A program made the translations under genes and the position numbers. A stretch of 64,000 bases of DNA from Candidatus Bathyarchaeota archaeon (GTDB taxonomy: Archaea; Thermoproteota; Bathyarchaeia; Bathyarchaeales; Bathyarchaeaceae), in the NCBI GenBank assembly GCA_963697165.1, contig CAVOMX010000014.1, positions 1-64,000 on the forward strand, written 5' to 3'. The notes beneath the pieces are model-generated. The model did not search any database. It saw only the letters and a list, made by a program, of their open reading frames with translations, and was not told the DNA's origin. Below are positions 43,976-62,001 of the stretch, one piece after another (the stretch's first letter is position 1; each line of letters begins with the position of its first letter).

Positions 43976-44049
43976 AACTTGGTTGAAGATTTAATGAACA
44001 GTAACAAGTTCTAGCATATAAAAGGGGAAACAGTAGCGGGGATAAATAA

Positions 44050-44436
44050 ATGAAAGAAAAAATGAAGATTCTAGTAGGAGTTGACGGTTCTGATTACTCT
44101 ACATGGGCGCTTATGGAAGCCATTAGTATTGCAAAAAAGTTTTCAGGTCACGTGAAAGTCATCACAGTCTACAAGCGAGGAAACATAGATGATTCGACCA
44201 AAATTCAGCTGAAAGTGAAGCAGCTTTTGGAGGAAGAAAAAATTGATTCTAGCTTATCAGCTATTCTTGGTTCCAACCCTTCAAGAGCCATGGTTGACAC
44301 AGCCAAAAACGAGAACTTCGACTTGATAGTAGTAGGCAGCAGAGGATTGGGCAGTGCTGCAGCTTTCCTGTTAGGTAGTGTCTCAAAACAGGTAGTTACC
44401 AAAGCAAGCTGCGATGTTCTTGTAGTAAAAAAGTAG
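44050..44436 (+). CDS. Universal stress protein
   Basis: ILVGVDGS, DLIVVGSRG, LLGSVS. Confidence 0.93.
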   Translation: MKEKMKILVGVDGSDYSTWALMEAISIAKKFSGHVKVITVYKRGNIDDSTKIQLKVKQLLEEEKIDSSLSAILGSNPSRAMVDTAKNENFDLIVVGSRGLGSAAAFLLGSVSKQVVTKASCDVLVVKK

Positions 44437-49992: not shown

Positions 49993-52090
49993 TTACCTCA
50001 AAGCAGTTAATAATAGCAAAATAATGATTAGGAAGAAGCCGAGCATGGCTGCCAAAACAAAGTCAGGTAGTGGTCCACGGTGCATCTTCTTGATTTTCTG
50101 TCCGTGCTCAACCGTTTTTCCTGCAAACAGATAGACCAGATTATCCAAGAATGAATCAATATATTCATGGGTTACCCGCGCAGTCTCCACTGGTTCCACC
50201 CGCCAAAATATAGCTTAAGCGGTCTAGGAAAGATTCAAGGTGCACATGTGTGTTGTGAGCAGTAATCACGGCTCCACCAGCTATGATATAAACGAACCTG
50301 TCAAGAAATGATTCTATGTAATCGTGAGTACCATGGGCAATCCTCAAAGCCCCGCCTGCAACAAGATAAGGAAATTGTTGCAACCCAGACATTTCAATGA
50401 TACTGTATGTAACCTGCGCCAAACCCATGACTCCATTCAATAGTTTATTGTAAACGGCATCGAAGTAATAGCCGTTGGATATTAAAAGATAAAGCGGTTT
50501 GTTTAAAAAACTTCTTGCAGAAACCATGGCAGTATCTCTCTTCTTGTAGTAAAGATAGTAGGCTGTAGATAAGCCAACAGCGAGGATTATAGCTGATGTT
50601 AAACTCGCCAAAATGACGCCATTGAATGAAGCTTCAAAGGGTATCGCAAGGTAATGCTCTAAGGGAGTCTTGAAGAAACCTGCGATACAGGAGGCAGCGG
50701 CTAACAGGACAAGGGGTACAGTTATTGTTGGTTTAGGATCATGCAATTGATGGTGCTCAAGATGCTCTGATTTCTTTCCGAGGAAAACCAGAGATATCCA
50801 TCTAATACTGTAGATGGCTGTTAACACAGATGTTCCGAAAATCAAAATGAAAAGTGGAATGTTATTAGCTAAGATTATGGCTTCGAATATAGTGTCTTTG
50901 CTCCAGAAACCGCTGAAAGGCGGAATACCGGCAAGCGAAAACGCGCCGATAACACTCACTATGAAGGTTATAGGCATCTCTTTTCTTATGCCTCCAAGCT
51001 GTTTCAGATCAAGAGTGTGAGTAATATGCATTACAACTCCAGCACAAAGGAACAAAAGCGACTTGAAGAGGGCGTGGCTGAGTACGTGGAATTGACTAGC
51101 GAACCAGCCTAGTTCAGTTCCTATGCCTAGGGCGGCCATTATCATGCCCAACTGGCTTATTGTAGAAAATGCTAGAACCCGTTTCAGGTCTGAGCTGGTC
51201 AATGCCATGGTTGCTGCAAGGAAAGCCGTGATTCCTCCGATGTATGTAATTGTGGTTAACCATGGCTGCACCAAAGAGAAGAGAATGTAGATTCTTGCCA
51301 CAAGATAGATTCCCGCTTTAACCATTGTTGCACCATGGATGAGGGCACTAGTCGGTGTTGGTCCTTCCATGGCGTTCGGAAGCCAAACATGTAATGGAAA
51401 TTGGGCAGATTTGCCTATAGCCCCAATCAACATCAAAACGGACACTGCTAACATTGGAACTGAAACTTGCCCAGCTGCTATAAGATCGCGGATTTCAAGA
51501 AAGTCGAATGTTCCAGTGTTCACGTATAGAAGCAGTATTCCGAGTAGTAGAAAAATGTCTCCGATTCTTGTTACGATGAAGGCTTTCATGCCTGCCTTGG
51601 CTGATTCAGGTCTAGTGTACCAGAATCCGATGAGGGCATATGAGCATAATCCAACGGTTTCCCAGAACATGTACATCTGTAGAAGATTGTTTGCCATAAC
51701 TAAGCCAATCATTCCACCGACGAAAAGAAGCATGAAGAAAAAGAATCTGGGAGTTCCTTTTTCTTTTTCCATATAGTTAACGGAGTAAATCATGATTAGC
51801 AGTCCAACACAGGCTGCAATGTTTGCCATCATGATGCTTAACGGGTCGATGAGGACGCTAAGGTTGATTTTCATGGATTGCATCCAAGGCATAGAATACA
51901 GTTGCGCTTCGCCATGAGCGTTGATTACGCTGGGAATAAGCGAGACAGTGTTAACAGCAGAAACAAGAGTGACTAAAACTGCGTACCAGCCAACGCTTCT
52001 ACGCCGAAACTTGGCTACCAAAGGTATAAACAATGATCCGACAAATGGAATTGCCCAACATAGCCAGGCTGCGTACTCGGCTGGAATCAG
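49993..52090 (-). CDS. NuoL-like antiporter subunit with repeat-extended C-terminus
   Basis: WETVGLCSYALIGFW, GKSAQFPLHVWLPNAMEGPTP, HALFK, GFWSKD. Confidence 0.92.
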
Positions 52091-52094
52091 AATG

Positions 52095-52424
52095 CTAGTT
52101 TTCCTCCACCATTTGGTTTTCTTGTTCAGATGGCTGTTCTTTTATTTCCGACAGTTCTCTGACATCACGGATATTTAGTTTTTTGTAGATAGAAATAGCA
52201 AGTGTAAGAGCAACAGCCGTTACACAGGCGTCAACAGATAAGGCAAGAATCGAGAAAGTTTGACCTAAAGGATCCCCCATTAATGAGCCAAAAACAACAA
52301 AATTCATTGTTGCTGCCGCAGTAAGCATTTCTATTGCGATCAGCATTTTTATCAAGTCATGCTTTGTAACCAAGCCGACTATTCCAATCGCTAGAATTGT
52401 AACAGCCAGTATTATGTAATCCAC
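52095..52424 (-). CDS. NuoK-like subunit
   Basis: LIKMLIAIEML, GQTF. Confidence 0.85.
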   Translation of the reverse strand: MDYIILAVTILAIGIVGLVTKHDLIKMLIAIEMLTAAATMNFVVFGSLMGDPLGQTFSILALSVDACVTAVALTLAISIYKKLNIRDVRELSEIKEQPSEQENQMVEEN

Positions 52425-52425
52425 T

Positions 52426-52905
52426 TTAGTTTCTCCTCCGTTCCTCCTTCAAAAGGAGCACTACGCCAAGCGCAGCCGTCAAAACGACTAAACCTTGAGC
52501 AAGAACATCAATCGCCCTCAAGTCCCATAATGCACTTGATAGTGACAAATCCAATGAGCTAGTAAAAGTTTGGGTTGCCACAGTTCCAACAACTACTGGA
52601 ACAGAAAGAATTGCAGAAACAATTAAACCCATGAATATCGTTTTGGTGGATGTTTTCGTGTCGCTTTTCTTGGTTAACGAATCACCAGCAAGAAGAAAAA
52701 TCGCTGCAGTTCCAGTGCCTAACGCCAACTGGAAGATTGCAGCGAAAGGCGCATTTAAGCTAAAGTAGAGCAATGAAAGCAATATCATCATTGTGCTTAG
52801 AGACAAAACCGAAGACACGGTTTCCTTCAAGTATATCGCAAAAACCGCAGAGGTCACCATACCAATAGCCAGAACTGTTTCAAGCCACATACTATTTTCC
52901 CTCAT
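52426..52905 (-). CDS. NuoJ-like subunit
   Basis: LNAPFAAIFQ, LWDLRAIDV. Confidence 0.8.
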   Translation of the reverse strand: MRENSMWLETVLAIGMVTSAVFAIYLKETVSSVLSLSTMMILLSLLYFSLNAPFAAIFQLALGTGTAAIFLLAGDSLTKKSDTKTSTKTIFMGLIVSAILSVPVVVGTVATQTFTSSLDLSLSSALWDLRAIDVLAQGLVVLTAALGVVLLLKEERRRN

Positions 52906-53287
52906 CTGTAGTAGATTTTTGTTTAATAATAAATTCCTCTGGATTTATCAGCATCTCTTCCTTTTCTGTTGTTGACATCTCAAAATTTGTGGATAGCTTT
53001 ATTGCCTCTCTTGGGCAGCTTTCCGCGCATTGATAACAAAATACGCAGCGGTCAAGGTAAAACTTTGGCATCCGTTTCCCAGAAACTTCCACAAGTTCTA
53101 TAGCATTAGCGGGACAGTCCCGCTCGCATAAGCCGCAGCTGATGCACTTTTCAGGATAGAAAACGTGCCTGCCTCGGTAGCCTTCAGGAGCTTCTACCTT
53201 TACAGCGGGATACTCACGAGTGAAGGACTTCTTGAAGATACATGAGCCCATGTCTTTTATCAGTGATGGTAATCGTAGTTTAGTCAC
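52892..53287 (-). CDS. NuoI-like 2[4Fe-4S] subunit
   Basis: TREYP, YRG, two ferredoxin motifs. Confidence 0.92.
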   Translation of the reverse strand: MTKLRLPSLIKDMGSCIFKKSFTREYPAVKVEAPEGYRGRHVFYPEKCISCGLCERDCPANAIELVEVSGKRMPKFYLDRCVFCYQCAESCPREAIKLSTNFEMSTTEKEEMLINPEEFIIKQKSTTDEGK

Positions 53288-53298
53288 ACTTTTTCCTC

Positions 53299-54291
53299 CT
53301 AACCAATCACCGACCGCAACAACGGTTCAATAATTATTGTAATAGCAAGAGATAAAATAGACAAGGGAATCATAAATTTCCAGTTGCCATGAACAACCTG
53401 ATCTATCCGTAATCTGGCAGACACATTACCGACATACTCTAGAACAAACACTACTCCAAGTGTTTTAACCATGAACCAGAAAGCATACCAGAGTTCAGGT
53501 GGTCCAATCAGCACGGGTCCATGAGCTCCACCTAAGAACAACATAGTTACAAGAGATGCACCAACCAGGAACTGAAAATCTTCTGCAAGTTTTATAAAAG
53601 CCAATTTTCTTCCACTGAACTCCGTTTCGTAACCTCCCACAATTTCGGTTTCTGCATGAGGAATATCGAAAGGATCCTTCTCTAACTCAGCCTGTAAGAC
53701 AATAATAAACAAGAAACAAGACCAAGGAATCAGAAGAGCAAAAGGAATAGATTGGCTCGCCGTAATATTCACAATGGACAAGCTTTTTGCAAGAAAAGCG
53801 GGACCAATCGCGAGAAGAATAAGAGGTATGTCGTATCCGAGAAACTGGGTCAGAACTCTGGTTGCGCCAATCCCGCTGTACGGATTCAAAGAAGCCCAAC
53901 CGGCAAGGAATATAGCAAAGTTTGCGAGAGATACAATAAGCAAAACTAGAAGCAAATCTCCCTCGAAACTCGAATTCAAAATCACATTTGAACCATCGAT
54001 CGGGATATAGAAAAGACCAAAAACATAGAGTGAAAACGCAAGAATTGGAGCTGCCACAAATAGCAGTTTGTTGGTATTCTTTGGAGTAATATCTTCATTC
54101 GAGAACAGTTTTATGTAATCGGCAATGGGTTGAAGAATACCAAATGGACCGGCATAAGAGGGACCCATACGGTTCTGAAACCGAGCTGCAACCTTTCTTT
54201 CAAACCAGTCAAAAAATAGAACTAGCACCAAGAGAAAGATGAAACCCGGAAACACCAGTGCCCTTACAATAAAAAGGAGATCAATAGCCAT
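53299..54291 (-). CDS. NuoH-like subunit
   Basis: ERKVAARFQNRMGP, QPIAD, PFDIPHAETEIVGG. Confidence 0.93.
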   Translation of the reverse strand: MAIDLLFIVRALVFPGFIFLLVLVLFFDWFERKVAARFQNRMGPSYAGPFGILQPIADYIKLFSNEDITPKNTNKLLFVAAPILAFSLYVFGLFYIPIDGSNVILNSSFEGDLLLVLLIVSLANFAIFLAGWASLNPYSGIGATRVLTQFLGYDIPLILLAIGPAFLAKSLSIVNITASQSIPFALLIPWSCFLFIIVLQAELEKDPFDIPHAETEIVGGYETEFSGRKLAFIKLAEDFQFLVGASLVTMLFLGGAHGPVLIGPPELWYAFWFMVKTLGVVFVLEYVGNVSARLRIDQVVHGNWKFMIPLSILSLAITIIIEPLLRSVIG

Positions 54292-55965
54292 CTAGATCAA
54301 CGCCTTCCGGTTTATAGAATTGTTTACGTCGTCAAGGCTCCAATGCCATTTCTGACCATTTTTGGTATCAATGAATGCCATACGGTCAGTGCAAGAAAAG
54401 CATGGGTCTAAGCTTCCCATCACAGAGGGAATATCAGCGATGTGGGCACCCCTAATTGCATCTGGAAATGCCATAAGGTTAGCTAAGGTTGGAGCTCTGA
54501 CCTTAACTCTGTAAGGATAGGCGGTTCCATCACTTTTAACATAATGGATAAGCTCGCCTCTCGGAGCCTCAACACGGCTAACAGCCTCACCTTCAGGTAT
54601 TTTTCGTTGAACCCTAACCCGCAAACGACCCCCTGGAATGTGACGAAGCGCATATTCTAGTATATCCAAGCTTTCCAGTACTTCTTCAGCTCGAACCATC
54701 AGCCGAGCCCATGTGTCACACTCCTTATAGCTCACTACATTGAAAGGAATTTCCCCATACGCCGCGTAAGGGTCATCTTTTCTGACATCAACAGCAATTC
54801 CTGACCCACGTGCAACAGGACCAACAACACATAATTTCAAAGCATCTGCTCTGTTCAATACGCCGACCCCTTCGGTTCTCATCCTCAATGTCGGGTCTTC
54901 ATCGAATACCTTCTTGTAGAAAGTCGCCCGTTTCCTGACATCTTTGACTGTCTTCAGAGTCTTCTCAATTGTACTTGGGTCTATATCTCGTCTTACTCCG
55001 CCGATTGTGTTGAACCCGCACATCAGTCGGTTTCCCGTGATTCGTTCGATTATATCCATTACAGGTTCTCTGTCACGCCACACATGCTGGAATAGTGCTT
55101 CAAAACCAAGCAGGTGACCGCCAACTCCAAGCAATAGGAGGTGACTATGAACTCTGTTTAGCTCATGTATAATAGTACGTAAGTATAATGCACGAGGCGG
55201 AGTCTCAATGTTTCCGATGTCCTCAACAGCTTGACAGAAGACAGTTGTGTGAGCAGCATTACAGATACCACAAATTCTCTCCACCAAAAACACGTCTTGG
55301 AAGTACATCATGCGCTCAGCCGCTTTCTCAATACCCCTATGAACATATCCAAGACGCGGCTCAACATCCACAACCGTTTCCCCATCAACTTTGAAGTTGA
55401 ATCTTTCTGGCTCATGCAAAACTGGATGCTGAGGCCCTACAACGACGTTAATTATCGACCCAGAATCATCTTCCGCTGATTCAGTCTGCGAAGCTTTCTC
55501 AGAACTGAAAGCAATTTCTTGGTTAACCGGAGGCTTCCAATCTTTTCTAAGAGGATAATTTCCTTGAGGCCAATTCTCAGGAAGCAACAACCTTTCCAGA
55601 TTTGGATGACCCTCAAAAGCGACTCCTAAGAGGTCAAAGACTTCCCGCTCATACAAATTTGCTCCGGGCAGGATGTCAGTAATCGTTTGGGTAACAGGGT
55701 TTTCTCGAGAAACACGGTTCTTGAGGGTTATGGTTCCCGCACAAGCCATGTGATAGTTTAACTCGATCTCGTTTCCTAAATCAACGCCACTTATTGTCGA
55801 AAGCTCCACGTCCTCAACTTGTGTTAGGAGCAACGAGATTGCATCTCTGTGACGTTCAGGTTTAAGAAGAATGTAGGCTTTCCTTGGCCTAGGGACTCTA
55901 CACTCGAGAATCGAATCAGCCAAATTATTCTTGAGAACTTCTACAGCATTTTCGAACGTGTTCAT
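54292..55965 (-). CDS. Group 4 [NiFe]-hydrogenase large subunit, NuoC-D fusion
   Basis: YEREVFD (NuoC), GPQHP, HRGIEK, L1 RICGIC, L2 DPCFSCTDR plus C-terminal extension. Confidence 0.93.
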   Translation of the reverse strand: MNTFENAVEVLKNNLADSILECRVPRPRKAYILLKPERHRDAISLLLTQVEDVELSTISGVDLGNEIELNYHMACAGTITLKNRVSRENPVTQTITDILPGANLYEREVFDLLGVAFEGHPNLERLLLPENWPQGNYPLRKDWKPPVNQEIAFSSEKASQTESAEDDSGSIINVVVGPQHPVLHEPERFNFKVDGETVVDVEPRLGYVHRGIEKAAERMMYFQDVFLVERICGICNAAHTTVFCQAVEDIGNIETPPRALYLRTIIHELNRVHSHLLLLGVGGHLLGFEALFQHVWRDREPVMDIIERITGNRLMCGFNTIGGVRRDIDPSTIEKTLKTVKDVRKRATFYKKVFDEDPTLRMRTEGVGVLNRADALKLCVVGPVARGSGIAVDVRKDDPYAAYGEIPFNVVSYKECDTWARLMVRAEEVLESLDILEYALRHIPGGRLRVRVQRKIPEGEAVSRVEAPRGELIHYVKSDGTAYPYRVKVRAPTLANLMAFPDAIRGAHIADIPSVMGSLDPCFSCTDRMAFIDTKNGQKWHWSLDDVNNSINRKALI

Positions 55966-55971
55966 AGTTTG

Positions 55972-56385
55972 CTATCCCTTCAATTTTCCAAGTAATTTCG
56001 CGACACCCTGCACTATTGCTTCGGGTTTTGGAGGACACCCCGGAATATAAACATCAACAGGAATTATCTCATCGAGACGCTTACTCACACCGTAACATCC
56101 TTGAAATATTCCTCCGGAACAGGCGCAGGCTCCTATTGCTAGAACAAATTTTGGTGAGGGCATTTGCTGATAAATCATCTCGAGTCGTGGTGCACACTGC
56201 TTAGTAACAACTCCGGTTACCACAAGAACGTCTGCATGACGAGGTGAGGGCTCAAGTTTCACACCGAAACGTTCAACATCGTATCTGGGCGTCAGCAGCG
56301 CAACAACTTCAATATCGCATCCATTGCATGCTCCGGTATTGAAGTGAAGCAGCCATGGCGAGTTTATTCTAGCCCATTTCACCAA
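55972..56385 (-). CDS. Hydrogenase small subunit (NuoB-like)
   Basis: GACNGCDIE, SPRHAD, GACA, PGCPP. Confidence 0.93.
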   Translation of the reverse strand: MVKWARINSPWLLHFNTGACNGCDIEVVALLTPRYDVERFGVKLEPSPRHADVLVVTGVVTKQCAPRLEMIYQQMPSPKFVLAIGACACSGGIFQGCYGVSKRLDEIIPVDVYIPGCPPKPEAIVQGVAKLLGKLKG

Positions 56386-56402
56386 GCCTAAGTCTGGCGT
56401 CT

Positions 56403-56726
56403 TTAGTAGCCTCCCATAAGCAGTAGGTCTGCTGCTAAAATTATACCCAAATAAATTAACAAAGAGAAGGGGTTGATAATCTCTAGAGCTAAGGCTGCAA
56501 AAGCCAATATCAACGCAGGGGAGTCTATTATAACAAAGAATATGAGGTACTTATAGAGAGTAACATTAACCAACAGCCTTTTTGAGAACACTTTTTCTCC
56601 ACATGCATACATTGCGCTTTTTTCTTCGTTAGCAGGAGATTTTTTTGTTAACAAGCCGCTGGACAAGTAAATCAATGAAGCAATGAACAAGATAATTAGA
56701 AAAGCAACAAGAGACTCTACAAGCAA
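56403..56726 (-). CDS. NuoA-like subunit
   Basis: K..MYACGE loop, 3 TM segments. Confidence 0.78.
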   Translation of the reverse strand: MLVESLVAFLIILFIASLIYLSSGLLTKKSPANEEKSAMYACGEKVFSKRLLVNVTLYKYLIFFVIIDSPALILAFAALALEIINPFSLLIYLGIILAADLLLMGGY

Positions 56727-57248
56727 AACTTATTCTCACCCATTCAGAAAGACTGTAATGTATATTCAGCATCTATCACTGGAATCATGTTTACTACGTT
56801 TATAGCATTTATCGGTCTTCGTGCCTCAAAATGTTGTTTCGATTTCAGTTGGGACAAACAGCAAGCTAACAAGACAGCTAAAACCGACGAGTTGGTAAAT
56901 GTGAAAAGCATTAGTTTTGTATGCGTTTCTGAATACCTCCGCCTTTGAGACGGGAAGTAAAAACTTAGGATTTAAGGATTCCGTATAATAAAATAGAACT
57001 AAAATAAAAAATTATATTCAATTAAATATAATTAAGTTCATTTGTTGCATATAAGCTTTTTTTGCGTACACATGAACATCCACTAGGAAATCCTGAAGAA
57101 CCAAAATCAGAAAAGCACATAGACTAACACCGAACAAAACCACACAAAATAATAAAAGAAGGGGGTAACAAAAAAATTCAAAAAATCAAGTTGGTTCAGC
57201 GTTTTATCTCTTCTAGAATGTTATTTTCCGAGCACTAGCCCGTAGTGG

Positions 57249-58037
57249 CTAATTTGAAAGAGATTCAATCACACCTTTCATTGCTTTGGTGTTGTGCATA
57301 AACTCTAATTTGATTGGCGTAACAGATACACAATTACCATTCTTGATGGCATGTAAATCCGTTCCTGGTTCTCCGTCGGGATAGTGTCTTAACGCCCAGC
57401 TTTTGATTCTGTATCCATTCTTTACTTTTGTGTGTATGTCGCCGTAACCATCATAACACAAACTTGTAAGTTTTACATTCTTGCAGTCAGCGTTTTCTGG
57501 CACATTTATCGAGATAATGTCCACGTCCGGCGGCATCCCCTCTTCTATCACATGTTTAGCGGCTTTATAGCCCAAAGAGGCAGCTAGTTCCAAGTCCGTC
57601 ACCGATACTTTATTTTTCTCAGGGGATTTATCGGTGATTTCGGATATACAATAAGAAACGGCGATGGCGGGTATGTTGTGAATAGCGGCTTCAAAGGCGG
57701 CTCCGACAGTGCCTGAAGTCAGCACGTCATCTATTCCAAGGTTTGGACCTATGTTTATTCCGGACACAAGCAAGTCCGGCATCCTTTTCATGATTTTGTT
57801 CACTGCTAATAGAAAAGAGTCGGCTGGTGTACCTGTTATTGCGTAAGCTTTTGTTCCGTCTCCAAAACTAGCCTCTGATATTTTCACTTGACCGATACTG
57901 ATGGCTTTTCCGACACCGCTCCTTTCGTCTCCTGGAGTAACAACTATCACATCTCCCAGTTTTTTTAGTTGTTTTACGAGAATGGATAAGCCAATAGAGT
58001 TGATTCCGTCGTCGTTGATTACTAGGATTGTCGGCAA
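57249..58037 (-). CDS. surE: 5'/3'-nucleotidase SurE
   Basis: ILVINDDG, GTPAD, SGINIGPNLG, SGTVGAAFEA. Confidence 0.95.
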   Translation of the reverse strand: MPTILVINDDGINSIGLSILVKQLKKLGDVIVVTPGDERSGVGKAISIGQVKISEASFGDGTKAYAITGTPADSFLLAVNKIMKRMPDLLVSGINIGPNLGIDDVLTSGTVGAAFEAAIHNIPAIAVSYCISEITDKSPEKNKVSVTDLELAASLGYKAAKHVIEEGMPPDVDIISINVPENADCKNVKLTSLCYDGYGDIHTKVKNGYRIKSWALRHYPDGEPGTDLHAIKNGNCVSVTPIKLEFMHNTKAMKGVIESLSN

Positions 58038-58253
58038 AGTGATTCCTCAGTTTGCTTTAGATACGATGTTCCGTTATTTTAGGGTATTCTTGCGTCCAGG
58101 AGAGTTTTCTTTTTATTGTGTAATTGTTTTTGTCGTGATTGGCATTCTAGTGTATATGTTGTCCAGTGGACATATATCGGTTTTTGTTACATATTATCGA
58201 ATGAAATAGTGTATATTAAGTAATAAGATATAGATATGTAGTAGGGTAGAACA

Positions 58254-58751
58254 ATGGAACAATTGAACAGAAGAACAACAGTAACAAAACCAACACCCAT
58301 ATTCACAACTAACTGGTACCTATACAAAACACACTTACACCCAATCTCCGCAAAACCACAAGAACAAAAAACTGGAACAAAAACCAACAGTTACAGGACA
58401 AAAAGAAAAAATAATGAAGATCAAAAAAACAACATTCATCAAAAAACAACTAATTTTGAAGAACTTTTGCTAAAAGCAATAGATGAAGGACTCTCTGTAA
58501 TCGGAGAATCAGCAAAAAAAATAGTCTACATCTATTTAGAAAAAAATTTCAAAATGAACAGACTAGACATACCACACAGAATTGACGAATTCACCAGAGC
58601 TATCGAAAGTATCTTTGGAAACGGAGCGAAAATACTTGAGATACAAATAATGAAAAGTCTCTTCAACAAAGTGGGTCACACAGTCAAACAGTATTCGGGA
58701 CAAAAGAACCTAACATTTATCGAATACATAGCAGCGATCAAATTGGAATAA
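58254..58751 (+). CDS. DUF3227-like small helical protein (start uncertain)
   Basis: LLLKAIDEGLSVIGES...IESIFGNGAKILEIQIMKSL. Confidence 0.65.
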   Translation: MEQLNRRTTVTKPTPIFTTNWYLYKTHLHPISAKPQEQKTGTKTNSYRTKRKNNEDQKNNIHQKTTNFEELLLKAIDEGLSVIGESAKKIVYIYLEKNFKMNRLDIPHRIDEFTRAIESIFGNGAKILEIQIMKSLFNKVGHTVKQYSGQKNLTFIEYIAAIKLE

Positions 58752-58884
58752 TAGAACCGCCCAAACACCAATAAGCAACAGTCAAACTAAAATCGCAAAA
58801 AAACGGGCAAAAACAACAACTACACGCAGATACCAGAGAAAAACAAAAACCTCAAAAGCAAATACATATTGCATTTGCAATAAC

Positions 58885-58892
58885 TTTATATT
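58885..58892 (+). promoter_or_regulatory. TATA box of candidate ncRNA
   Basis: TTTATATT about 25-30 nt upstream of the structured GC island. Confidence 0.6.
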
Positions 58893-58918
58893 ATATGATG
58901 CTTTTTGACGCTCTTGAT

Positions 58919-59032
58919 GGATGGTGAGGGGACAACGAGAAAATACCCCCTGTTCTCCATTCGCCAAGAGACATACCCTCTCCTTGTGCGATCGACGGTG
59001 CATATGCGCGCATGCGCCATGTCCCCCCATCC
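58919..59032 (+). ncRNA. Candidate structured small RNA (four-helix junction)
   Basis: 13-bp closing stem plus three hairpins; GC island in an AT-rich intergenic region. Confidence 0.65.
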
Positions 59033-59090
59033 TTAGTTCTGGCATAAAACTACAGATAAAAAAGAGAATTAATGATAGAATGAACGACCG

Positions 59091-59390
59091 TTAGATTATT
59101 ACGGTTCTACGGATTTTGAAGCCATCAAACACTCCAGTGTATTCTTCCCATTTTATATCTATCTTCAAAACTCGGGCGCCTGAAGGTCCAAGTCCACAAA
59201 AATCAATCAGCTGCTCCACATCTCCTTTCTCCCCCTCAAAGATTGCTTCCACTCTACCATCAGATGCGTTTCGAACCCAACCTGCAACGCTTCTTTTCAG
59301 AGCCTCACAGCGAGTTTCCACCCTAAAGAATACTCCTTGAACCATACCGCTTACAAAGATATGGGCTCTAACATTCATGTTTCTCATCAA
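59091..59390 (-). CDS. acyP: Acylphosphatase
   Basis: GMVQGVFFR, GWVRN..DGRVE. Confidence 0.95.
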   Translation of the reverse strand: MMRNMNVRAHIFVSGMVQGVFFRVETRCEALKRSVAGWVRNASDGRVEAIFEGEKGDVEQLIDFCGLGPSGARVLKIDIKWEEYTGVFDGFKIRRTVII

Positions 59391-59452
59391 GCAGTAGCAA
59401 CTTAAACATATTTAACTAGCAGGCAAGAAGATTAAAAGTAAATAAGATTGTG

Positions 59453-59791
59453 TTAAGATGTTTTTTTGAAGTTTATAGATTGCCCTGATAGATCTACCTC
59501 GTAAATTTGATTCACATCAAAGTCTATACCAAACCTTTCATATTCACTCTCAGTTAGAAACAAAATCATTTTCGGGATAGCAAACTGAGTTGCTTGGGTA
59601 GCAAGCATTGGGAGTTGCTGCTGTAGACTTTTCATAACCTCCTGAACCATTTGTGCCTCTTCTGTTGCAGGTCTAACCGCAAACCGGGGAATAACCCGAT
59701 CTTCAATAAGCTCGATCCGTTTACCAAGGTTACCTTCAGGATCTTTGATAGATTCAATCTTCTGAACCCTGACACGTGTCACAATAACCAC
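59453..59791 (-). CDS. Arcadin-1 homolog
   Basis: RVRVQKIE...DP.G..GKRIEL.E, PKMILFLTESEYE..G..FDVNQIYEV. Confidence 0.75.
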   Translation of the reverse strand: MVIVTRVRVQKIESIKDPEGNLGKRIELIEDRVIPRFAVRPATEEAQMVQEVMKSLQQQLPMLATQATQFAIPKMILFLTESEYERFGIDFDVNQIYEVDLSGQSINFKKTS

Positions 59792-59812
59792 TTCACATAC
59801 CCAGTAGAATCC

Positions 59813-60223
59813 CAGAAGCCTTTATACATTTCTTAACTAGAAGATACTCATTCCATCTCAGCAGTTTTGCTCAAGACCCTGTAGAAGATTTCCCTGAATT
59901 TTTCCCGCTTTTCTTCAGCATCTCAGGATCCCGCAACTCCTTCATTTCACTTAAGAAACGTTCCTGCGAATTCACCAATTCATAGGTAAATTCAGGGGAG
60001 GCTGAGACAATATCTGTGCAACAATTTCAGGTTCTCCGTCTCGCATGAAGACTGTGTCAAGGATGAGACATAGAAGATTATTACTAGAGCACAGTTTGTG
60101 AGTACGGCATATATTGTGTTTTCTACACATCCTGAAACTGCTATGAGGGCTCGTTATTCTATGACAATTTTCTTGACGGCTTTTGTCTGCAGTTCCCCAA
60201 AGTTTTTCGGATCAAATTGCTTC
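59813..60223 (-). pseudogene. Frameshifted hypothetical ORF
   Basis: Protein-like fragments (MKQFDPKNFGELQTKAVKKIV; SPEFTYELVNSQERFLSEMKELRD) downstream of 60222..60677. Confidence 0.35.
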
Positions 60224-60677
60224 AAGGTTCTGCACAGCCCTCTGAAAGTAGTTGGTGTGCCATTTTTTCTGTTAGGTACATGCCCATCTGGGGCATTCTT
60301 TCTTTTCTGATAATTTTTGCCATTGCTTTTGTTGTGACAGGTTTTGTGAGTTCCTTTAGGTTTCTGAACCTAACGAAGGTAGCTTTTTTTCTTCCCTGCA
60401 GAAAATCTTGATATTCGTCATATGAGTTTAGTAAAGATTCATGTCCAAGAGATTTCCAGAGGTCTTTAGCGTTTCCGGTGACTCGTTCAATGAATTCTGC
60501 ATATCCTTGGATTTCTTTTCGGGGATGTGTCACATAGAAGAAAAGTTGTTTTGCATTTTTAGGGCCTACTACTCCTCTGCGGACAAAGGCGTGGATGGGC
60601 TTTCCTGTTCGACTTTGGTTGCATAATCGGGTCCAAAATTTTTCTAGATTCAAGACGATGAAAGCATATTTTTTCAA
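60222..60677 (-). CDS. PUA/ASCH-like (DUF365-like) protein
   Basis: LFFYVTHPRKEIQGYAEF...LWK. Confidence 0.65.
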   Translation of the reverse strand: MKKYAFIVLNLEKFWTRLCNQSRTGKPIHAFVRRGVVGPKNAKQLFFYVTHPRKEIQGYAEFIERVTGNAKDLWKSLGHESLLNSYDEYQDFLQGRKKATFVRFRNLKELTKPVTTKAMAKIIRKERMPQMGMYLTEKMAHQLLSEGCAEP

Positions 60678-60986
60678 CTTTTTTCACACACCCTCTGAAT
60701 TTATTGCTAATTATTTACATTCTTTATCTTTATAAACAAAAGAGGCAAAAAACATGAGATAATGGTCAATACTAGACAGAAAAGAACCTTGTTCCCAACT
60801 AACACAGAATAAGGGTTTCCTGAGGTCGAAACTGTTAAGTTATTTGTCATGGATGTAAAACTAGATGTTTAGGCTTACCTCCAAGAAGATTTGCTATACA
60901 CAGAAACATAGAAAAGTAACCCAACACGTTTGATAAAATCGGTTTAGAAGAAATTATTTTTATAATCAGACGTGAGTTGATAAATT

Positions 60987-61394
60987 TTGGAAGCTGTTGG
61001 CGTTGTTGTTGCAATAGTTACAAGGGGAAACAAGTTTTTGGTTGAACGCCGTCGATGGGATGAAAGGATTGACCCAGGTATAGTATGCTTGCCCGCGGGT
61101 CATGTTAAACCCAACGAAAGCCTAGAGGAAGCATTGAAAAGGGAGATGATGGAGGAGCTGGGTATCCAAGTTAAGGAGATACAGTTTGTATGCAAGAACT
61201 TCTATGTTGCAAGTAACGGCGAGAGACAGAATGCATATTGTTACCGTATTATTGACTTCGAAGGGGAACCCGTCTGTAAAGAGGCTGAAAATATTTTCTG
61301 GGAAGACGAAATCAATAAGATGAGTTTAGATGTTGACAGGAAGACACTTGAAAAAATGAGAGAAATCCAAAAAGAATTAGGTCAAGACGAATAA
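60987..61394 (+). CDS. Nudix hydrolase
   Basis: GHVKPNESLEEALKREMMEELG. Confidence 0.92.
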   Translation: MEAVGVVVAIVTRGNKFLVERRRWDERIDPGIVCLPAGHVKPNESLEEALKREMMEELGIQVKEIQFVCKNFYVASNGERQNAYCYRIIDFEGEPVCKEAENIFWEDEINKMSLDVDRKTLEKMREIQKELGQDE

Positions 61395-61428
61395 ACGACT
61401 AAACTGGACACCGAGGGAAAATTCAAAA

Positions 61429-62001
61429 GTGGACAATGACAGAAAAATGGAAAAACTGGCCAAGCCTCTGAAACAAACTTCAGAAAGTCTAAATGCAAAC
61501 GCCGCCGTTGTTGTGCTTTTGAGAGCAGCAGGTCAGGCCTTTCATGTCTTATTGGTGAAAAGAGCAGAAAACCCAACAGATAAATGGTCAGGACAGACTG
61601 CGTTCCCTGGAGGAAAACGAAATCCTGAAGACATAGACATCAAGGCAACTGTTGTTAGGGAAACTTCGGAGGAAACCAGCATAAATCTTCTGGAGGACTG
61701 CCGTTTTCTGGGAACAATGGAGCCTCTGAGCTCAGTAGAGAAACCTGAGATGAAAATTCTTCCATTCATTGTCATGCAGGAAAAGGAACAGGCAATAAAA
61801 CTGAACCATGAGTTAACGGAATACTTCTGGACCCCACTAAAAGAACTTGGCAGTAATAATGGAACAACCAAGTTGAGTCTCGGAGAATTCCCCGCCTACA
61901 AAATAGGTAAACATGTTATCTGGGGATTAACATACAATATTTTACATAACCTTCTTTCATTACTATCAGATATCGAGAAAGAAGAGTCAAAAGAAAACTA
62001 A
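61429..62001 (+). CDS. Nudix CoA pyrophosphatase (NudL-like)
   Basis: WSGQTAFPGG, RETSEETS, IWGLT. Confidence 0.88.
   Translation: MDNDRKMEKLAKPLKQTSESLNANAAVVVLLRAAGQAFHVLLVKRAENPTDKWSGQTAFPGGKRNPEDIDIKATVVRETSEETSINLLEDCRFLGTMEPLSSVEKPEMKILPFIVMQEKEQAIKLNHELTEYFWTPLKELGSNNGTTKLSLGEFPAYKIGKHVIWGLTYNILHNLLSLLSDIEKEESKEN

Follow-up and report, generated by a model that had tools for sequence, protein, structure and literature searches.

Small RNAs (sRNAs) that occur as paralogues, vary in hairpin number and expose C-rich, anti-Shine-Dalgarno-like loops have been described in Alphaproteobacteria as the cuckoo, RSs0680 (CcsR) and ar14 RNAs, and the accessible part of that account gives the cuckoo RNAs CCUCCUCCC in every loop and no multiloops (PMC4615179). 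The same portion of text relates that the C-rich loops of Staphylococcus RNAIII and related UCCC-loop sRNAs are proposed to start pairing at ribosome-binding sites (PMC4615179). In archaea, the available part of a study on Methanosarcina describes sRNA154 and sRNA41 as stand-alone sRNAs that mask ribosome-binding sites, sRNA154 by means of a loop (PMC5867862). Here we analyze a predicted small RNA in a 64,000-nucleotide (nt) stretch from a Candidatus Bathyarchaeota archaeon (positions 1 to 64,000 of contig CAVOMX010000014.1, assembly GCA_963697165.1; the whole stretch is hereafter called the window, and its genome G000). The element is non-coding, conserved, biased towards the plus strand and equipped with its own B recognition element (BRE) and TATA box, and it probably represents an undescribed small RNA family with dispersed sibling copies in Bathyarchaeia. 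All parts that an earlier note had read from the letters (TATA box, closing stem, hairpins 1 to 3 and a four-way junction) were found in place, and the element proved larger than described there (~118 nt). Its features are as follows.

58878-58884, + strand: BRE-like CAATAAC, nearly invariant in 21 orthologues
58885-58892, + strand: TATA box TTTATATT; TTTATA in 21/21 orthologues and in 37/37 metagenome copies with enough flank
58902-58906, + strand: T-rich stretch, putative initially melted region; T run conserved
58916-59035, + strand: predicted small RNA of ~118-120 nt, delimited by the fold and the limit of the sequence match
58919-58934, + strand: 5' arm of closing stem P1, Shine-Dalgarno (SD)-like GGAUGGUGA, includes an AUG (fold, individual folds and pair table)
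58937-58957, + strand: hairpin 1 with an exposed C run at 58946-58950; loop, UUCUC arm and linker make up the family core
58961-58991, + strand: hairpin 2 with loop CAUACCC at 58972-58978 and 3' arm CCCUCUCC; 98.8% of cells paired, UACCC in 20/21 orthologues
58997-59018, + strand: hairpin 3 with self-complementary GCGCGC at 59006-59011, genus-specific in this form
59020-59032, + strand: C-rich 3' arm of closing stem P1 (folds)

The role given to the T run at 58902-58906 is one that we presume from archaeal promoter geometry. Read in this way, the sequence suggests an RNA 5' end near 58916 (range 58914-58919) and a 3' end at the U run following the closing stem; similarity among orthologues in the DNA search stops at query position ~154. 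The 3' arm of hairpin 2 carries one bulged C and one bulged U.

ViennaRNA scripts, used for folding and interaction predictions, gave the four-way junction at -46.5 kcal/mol (z -2.89; 2/200 shuffles equally good), and the minus strand reached z -1.21. In an alignment of 22 sequences, 92.1% of the 846 cells are paired, and at 7 of the 39 pairs both sides have changed (0/500 shuffles), a statistic in which relatedness alone can beat shuffles and which is distinct from R-scape values. Within the genus, hairpins 1 and 2 are mostly invariant; hairpin 3 shows a U-G/C-G/U-A exchange at one pair and a change from G-C to A-U at another. The alignment holds 56 G-U cells versus 15 A-C cells, and the plus strand is the better fold in 55 of 72 retained family members. 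An independent metagenome set (40 of 43 pattern matches, 33 of them distinct) was fitted to the covariance model, with three pattern matches dropped because they lacked a model match; here 96.6% of cells are paired and 3/37 pairs doubly changed. In individual folds the closing stem forms the multiloop fully in 21 of the 22 sequences and partly in the remaining one. RNAalifold proposed an alternative pairing of the 5' region, which we set aside, as individual folds and divergent members favour the long closing stem; the alternative may be a folding intermediate. Across the family the sequence of the closing stem has been replaced almost wholly with pairing kept, which is stronger structural evidence than the changes within the genus.

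The small open reading frame (ORF) that overlaps the element from 58921 encodes 57 amino acids (aa) in the window, where 56 codons had been counted before. Its conservation was the alternative to a structural RNA that the earlier note had named, and it is not conserved: over the 21 orthologues the product from the 58921 ATG measures 1-64 aa and crosses different frames, the other ATG (a leaderless ORF at 58917) gives 3-90 aa, and Pfam returned no match for the overlapping small ORF. Contigs from four RNA runs held 5-20% of the element's words; being assembled contigs that cover the promoter, flanks and neighbours as well as the RNA, they provide no evidence either way on transcription.

Rfam 15 yielded a single match in window 56000-62000 (E 1.4), outside the element, so that the covariance-model check suggested beforehand found no known family there. 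Of 34 further loci of the RNA family, 20 had no Rfam matches and the other 14 had nine, none on the RNA. The earlier remark that the element does not look like a tRNA, 5S, signal recognition particle (SRP) RNA or C/D guide held as well: ARAGORN found no tRNA or tmRNA genes in the window, no 5S or SRP model matched at the element while the genome's true 5S and SRP genes lie elsewhere, and for box C/D or H/ACA guides there was neither an Rfam match nor, by eye, a conserved D box. Together with the conservation, the TATA counts given below and the unconserved ORF, this bears out the reading of a new structured, promoter-bearing, plus-strand non-coding element. The cuckoo type is marked by 2-4 hairpins standing side by side. 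Compared with the cuckoo RNAs as the accessible text presents them, the Bathyarchaeia family likewise has paralogous copies, a variable hairpin number and C-rich loops, but it is archaeal, has a closing stem and multiloop, carries one C-rich core and lacks CCUCCUCCC; its loops are C4-5, UACCC and GCGCGC, or CUCCU and a U run. RNAIII differs in size, fold and lineage, and no sequence or model match links the two. sRNA154 and sRNA41 are described, in the part of their report available, as single RNAs, whereas the Bathyarchaeia family consists of dispersed siblings with up to seven model matches per genome; here too there is no match. On the features tested the family lies outside the cuckoo, Y RNA, guide RNA and MITE (miniature inverted-repeat transposable element) groups.

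By DNA search the element was located in 20 of the genus's 24 other genomes, and 36 genomes from other genera gave no match. The remaining four in the genus likewise lack the arcadin gene (0/4), which makes missing assembly likely, though not proven. Mean identity of the 20 orthologues to the window is 87% in the RNA and 79% in the promoter (45 bases), compared with 48% and 52% in the flanks. The order surE, NitrOD5-like gene (not always present), RNA, acyP, arcadin is largely kept at orthologous loci, with the following neighbours in the window.

57249-58037, - strand: surE
58254-58751, + strand: upstream neighbour, weak NitrOD5-like protein (E 0.0027, below cut-off), absent at some orthologous loci
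59091-59390, - strand: acylphosphatase acyP, convergent
59453-59791, - strand: arcadin-1

In a genome assigned to the second taxonomic family, a genus-type copy with genus neighbours (L064, G150:C165) is perhaps mis-binned or transferred. Directly before the BRE, window 58860-58877 holds a semi-conserved, partly palindromic A/T-rich word in the genus, a possible regulator site. Further upstream, an ORF cluster on the minus strand (window 52000-56726) resembles, by eye, a membrane-bound hydrogenase or complex-I-like module.

Beyond the orthologous locus, the family was expanded through three rounds of covariance models. Two further RNA copies are present in G000, within a segment of at least 3.1 kb duplicated at 98.6%.

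G000:C12:183217-186325 and G000:C14:121683-124791: duplicated segment pair (L024/L025), a recent duplication or strain mixture

The last model produced matches in 42 of 60 genomes of the taxonomic family (at least two of these rest on a match judged false), in 16 of 20 genera and with no more than seven per genome. Within the order, 7 of 25 second-family genomes had a match, one of them through L064, and the 91 genomes from ten other families had none; the class and phylum samples (151 genomes each) returned only three weak matches inside ORFs, L226 lying within an ORF, and one weak match outside the class. As each genome contributes only 26 scored candidates to these wide searches, a negative outcome is weak. 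Outside the class, L227 (G332:C1:158064-158156, - strand) is a weak model match with a TATA upstream and a poor fold. An exact core-motif scan of GTDB genomes gave 13 loci, 12 of them titled Bathyarchaeia; L122 and L123 were dropped among these 13 named matches. Virus loci from pattern scans (4, 0 and 13) had a best model E of 0.055 and none of those inspected showed the fold, so they were treated as chance.

A TATA-like word stands 20-45 nt upstream of 67 of the 84 examined matches and of 45/62 found by the model only, compared with 3.85% at random positions. Because the promoter is absent from the model, this count serves as an outside check on the matches; the TATA pattern was written after many matches had been seen, and the counts use all 84. 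Twelve of the 84 were then dropped as probably false (L066, L068-L071, L086-L088, L091, L110-L112), partly on missing TATA, so that the 72-member statistics describe a selected set.

Three subtypes can be distinguished, CUCCUUUCUC serving as the label for one subtype of the RNA family. In the window's form (i), three hairpins bear the loops C4-5, UACCC and GCGCGC; paralogues of form (ii) retain the first two hairpins, with the third short or absent; and form (iii) consists of two hairpins, the second with a U-rich loop, and carries ACUCCUUUCUC (family 1) or a doubled CUCCUUU (family 2). Most family members have only two hairpins. All subtypes share the closing stem and the core C-Y-C-Y-W-UUCUC-Y, which is present in 68 of the 72 retained members (its UUCUC part being fixed by the search pattern), and the C-rich loop of the core is predicted to be more than 70% unpaired in 63 of these 68. 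In L118:281-362 (- strand), an unusual member, the core lies in the multiloop, with an unrelated hairpin on one side and a perfect closing stem of 13 bp on the other, and since it lacks its usual hairpin partner there, it is the core's sequence, not its pairing, that is kept. The two AUACCC loops by which the element had originally been singled out occur together in only 6/21 orthologues, and CAUACCC as such is kept in 6/21 orthologues and 11/33 distinct metagenome copies; what the family shares is the C-rich loop of hairpin 1 running into UUCUC.

Given this shared core, our leading though tentative interpretation, to which we allow slightly less than an even chance, is a stand-alone trans-acting sRNA, one of several dispersed siblings, that masks SD sequences. 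We infer each step of the mechanism. The RNA would be transcribed from ~58916 and protected by its long 5'/3' stem, the junction would present the C-rich loop for nucleation on G-rich SD sequences, and pairing would extend into the weak UUCUC arm, with a core complement of roughly GAGAAAGGAG or GAGAAUAGGGG. Loading of the small subunit would thereby be blocked on many mRNAs; the UACCC loop could add a second contact in the three-hairpin form, the U-rich loop of the two-hairpin forms may recruit an Sm-like protein, and expression would probably depend on conditions.

The genome provides G-rich targets for such pairing. According to our own rough gene call of G000 (2087 genes), SD words at -16 to -4 are led by GGTGA (128 vs 11.5 expected), GGAGA (107 vs 25.5) and AGGAG (100 vs 18.9), with AGGGG (52 vs 13.6) and GGGGG (38 vs 6.6) also in excess, and the G000 16S tail reads GAUCACCUCCU. 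A G+C-rich part of G000:C9 (~100000-119553) is unlike the rest of the genome and looks foreign or mis-binned; it was excluded from later statistics. With opening costs included, 86 interactions reach -3 kcal/mol or lower, and 43 of these begin in hairpin 1. The loop and arm of hairpin 2 reach -14 or lower at 93/2089 start regions versus 35/2089 coding regions, and the start-region preference of this loop with its 3' arm exceeds that of 39/40 shuffles. Loops that pair with SD sequences in general are thus plausible, and to this extent the earlier suggestion of translation-blocking loops stands; its specific form, pairing with a combined SD and AUG, found no support, as the 12-mer complement put forward as that target occurs once in the genome and at no gene start.

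Individual targets were sought among predicted pairing sites, of which the best for hairpin 1, a candidate only, is the following.

44024-44041, + strand: best predicted hairpin-1 pairing site, over the SD region of the universal stress protein (Usp) gene at 44050-44436

The site falls within the top 1.6% of the G000 null in 7 of 13 relatives, which are not independent of one another. The Usp leader itself (window 44024-44041) contains two G-rich blocks that are kept in many relatives, whether or not the RNA binds.

Several results count against SD masking. The start preference of the hairpin-1 core is reached by 17/40 same-letter shuffles for the window, 14/40 for L054 and 5/40 for L107, so this preference follows from C/U richness. 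Cognate versus non-cognate Usp pairing is not significant (p 0.07, or 0.14 without G000), Usp was chosen as the best of 1844, and of the top 15 candidates two were followed into relatives; the other, a rubrerythrin site, is kept in 0/16 relatives carrying the RNA. Moreover, in the metagenome set 15 of the 16 pairs that make up hairpins 1 and 2 show no variation, a count in which the search pattern fixed part of them and which fits protein recognition equally. With regard to a guide role on ribosomal or SRP RNA, a separate matter, pairing of the core was no better than that of shuffles for 16S and 5S or 23S (five cores), and with SRP RNA one of seven cores beat its shuffles (0/15 reached it), a result not repeated in the other cores.

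Protein recognition leads to the strongest rival, possible although rather unlikely in our estimate, in which the RNA is a scaffold or decoy whose tandem YCCWUUC heptamers and C-rich loops are bound by an Sm-like, KH-type or other protein that the siblings titrate, and whose three-hairpin form may dimerise through its GCGCGC loop. The near-invariant stems and junction, the several dispersed copies and a core devoid of order-specific anti-SD signal all agree with this, as do the U-rich second loops alongside two LSM genes in G000; the loop sequences vary among subtypes, though, and no partner gene is a constant neighbour. Y RNAs, the partners of Ro60, are about 100 nt long and combine a long 5'/3' stem with internal hairpins. 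The present family resembles them in the long stem and internal hairpins but has no Rfam match, and no TROVE/Ro60 gene was detected in G000, the one genome searched (81% complete). Dimerisation would recall the GCGCGC kissing loop of retroviral dimer initiation: a palindrome of at least 6 nt is present in 22/22 hairpin-3 loops, and the GCGCGC loop-loop duplex is predicted at -14.7 kcal/mol. However, the self-complementary hexamer belongs to one subtype only and is also a common intergenic motif, its genome-wide enrichment in intergenic DNA meaning that it may act at the DNA level. In G000 it is ~4x enriched there (59 found against 13.6 expected) and is seldom seen within coding sequence; runs include window 3235 and 59006 and also flank family members in other genera.

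The palindrome TAGAAC-N3-GTTCTA or its half-sites lie between TATA and RNA in all six second-family members (L065, L102, L104-L107), and many family-1 two-hairpin members (among L054-L063 and L072-L097) have it downstream, beside an inward BRE/TATA-like word. This word stands on the opposite strand, 15-45 nt past the closing stem, in L054, L057, L059, L062, L063, L073, L077, L080 and others, and is a possible antisense promoter. A perfect copy of the palindrome at G000:C18:72241-72255 lies 177 nt upstream of a transcription factor B (TFB)-like gene (L132), and the window's own RNA copy is without one; a literature search on the palindrome returned nothing relevant. The palindrome is a probable transcription-factor site, and one factor could control the family by repression or antisense transcription. 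In a more far-reaching version of the SD-masking reading, which we consider improbable, the siblings would differ from ordinary sRNAs with few targets and would restrain translation globally, as a protected RNA imitating the 3' tail of 16S and binding SDs, or the proteins that handle this tail, throughout the transcriptome. A single TAGAAC-N3-GTTCTA factor would switch it, acting at the sense promoter in one family and next to the inward antisense promoter in the other, and the three-hairpin form would dimerise by its GCGCGC kissing loop. Were this true, slow-growing sediment archaea would possess an RNA for dormancy or stress to which no counterpart has been described.

Very unlikely, in our view, is a decoy for the ribosome or for initiation, in which the SD-like GGAUGGUGA of the 5' arm and its AUG bind small subunits or 70S and dampen translation. 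Of the 72 members, 58 do have an AUG inside their first 14 nt, its U is kept though mispaired in 18/22 and 28/32 cells, and GGAUGGUGA is similar to GGTGA, the leading SD word of the genome. Yet the 5' arm is predicted to be paired, the six second-family members lack such an AUG, complementarity to 16S, 23S and 5S does not go beyond shuffles, and conservation of the 5' AUG could, we presume, stem from an initiator element.

We regard it as highly improbable that the family is mobile DNA of MITE type or another DNA-level palindrome acting without an RNA. Like MITEs it has inverted ends and dispersed copies in differing gene contexts, and in one subtype a second site, promoter-like and palindromic, points inward. 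Unlike them, it has a terminal stem that changes without loss of pairing around a conserved interior; the G-U excess and the better plus-strand folds point to RNA, the promoter is situated beyond the stem, orthologues occupy a fixed position throughout the genus, and a crude test confined to the stem ends found no signal of target-site duplication (3.54 vs 3.62 nt in the control). There is similarly little to be said for a leader that regulates a downstream gene in cis, as a riboswitch or attenuator: the alternative 5' pairing from RNAalifold would suit one, the paralogue L022/L050:1501-1612 has a MoaA-type radical SAM gene of the same orientation ~90 nt downstream of it, and two copies precede a helix-turn-helix-like ORF (labelled by eye), but the gene that follows is convergent in the window as well as in its orthologues, and downstream genes differ in kind and orientation. 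A small protein-coding gene at 58921 or 58917 has a negligible chance and is largely refuted already, for both ORFs are open in the window but frame and length are unconserved and Pfam is silent.

Taken together, we regard this as a real and probably undescribed archaeal non-coding RNA family, whose mode of action may be that of the C-rich anti-SD sibling sRNAs, in another fold and another domain of life. Literature naming Bathyarchaeia together with RNA terms, as far as its accessible text goes, contained no structured small RNA family from Bathyarchaeia, and supplementary candidate lists of motif surveys could hold it. The conservation of archaeal sRNAs is often narrow (in the available part of one report, 21% of intergenic sRNAs were common to three Methanosarcina species; PMC5867862), and here a promoter-bearing RNA is 87% identical across a genus and has siblings across two families. 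The family offers a ready Rfam seed and a marker for sediment metatranscriptomes, and it lets one test directly if C-rich anti-SD sibling RNAs arose in archaea separately from those of bacteria, with Sm proteins or without them.
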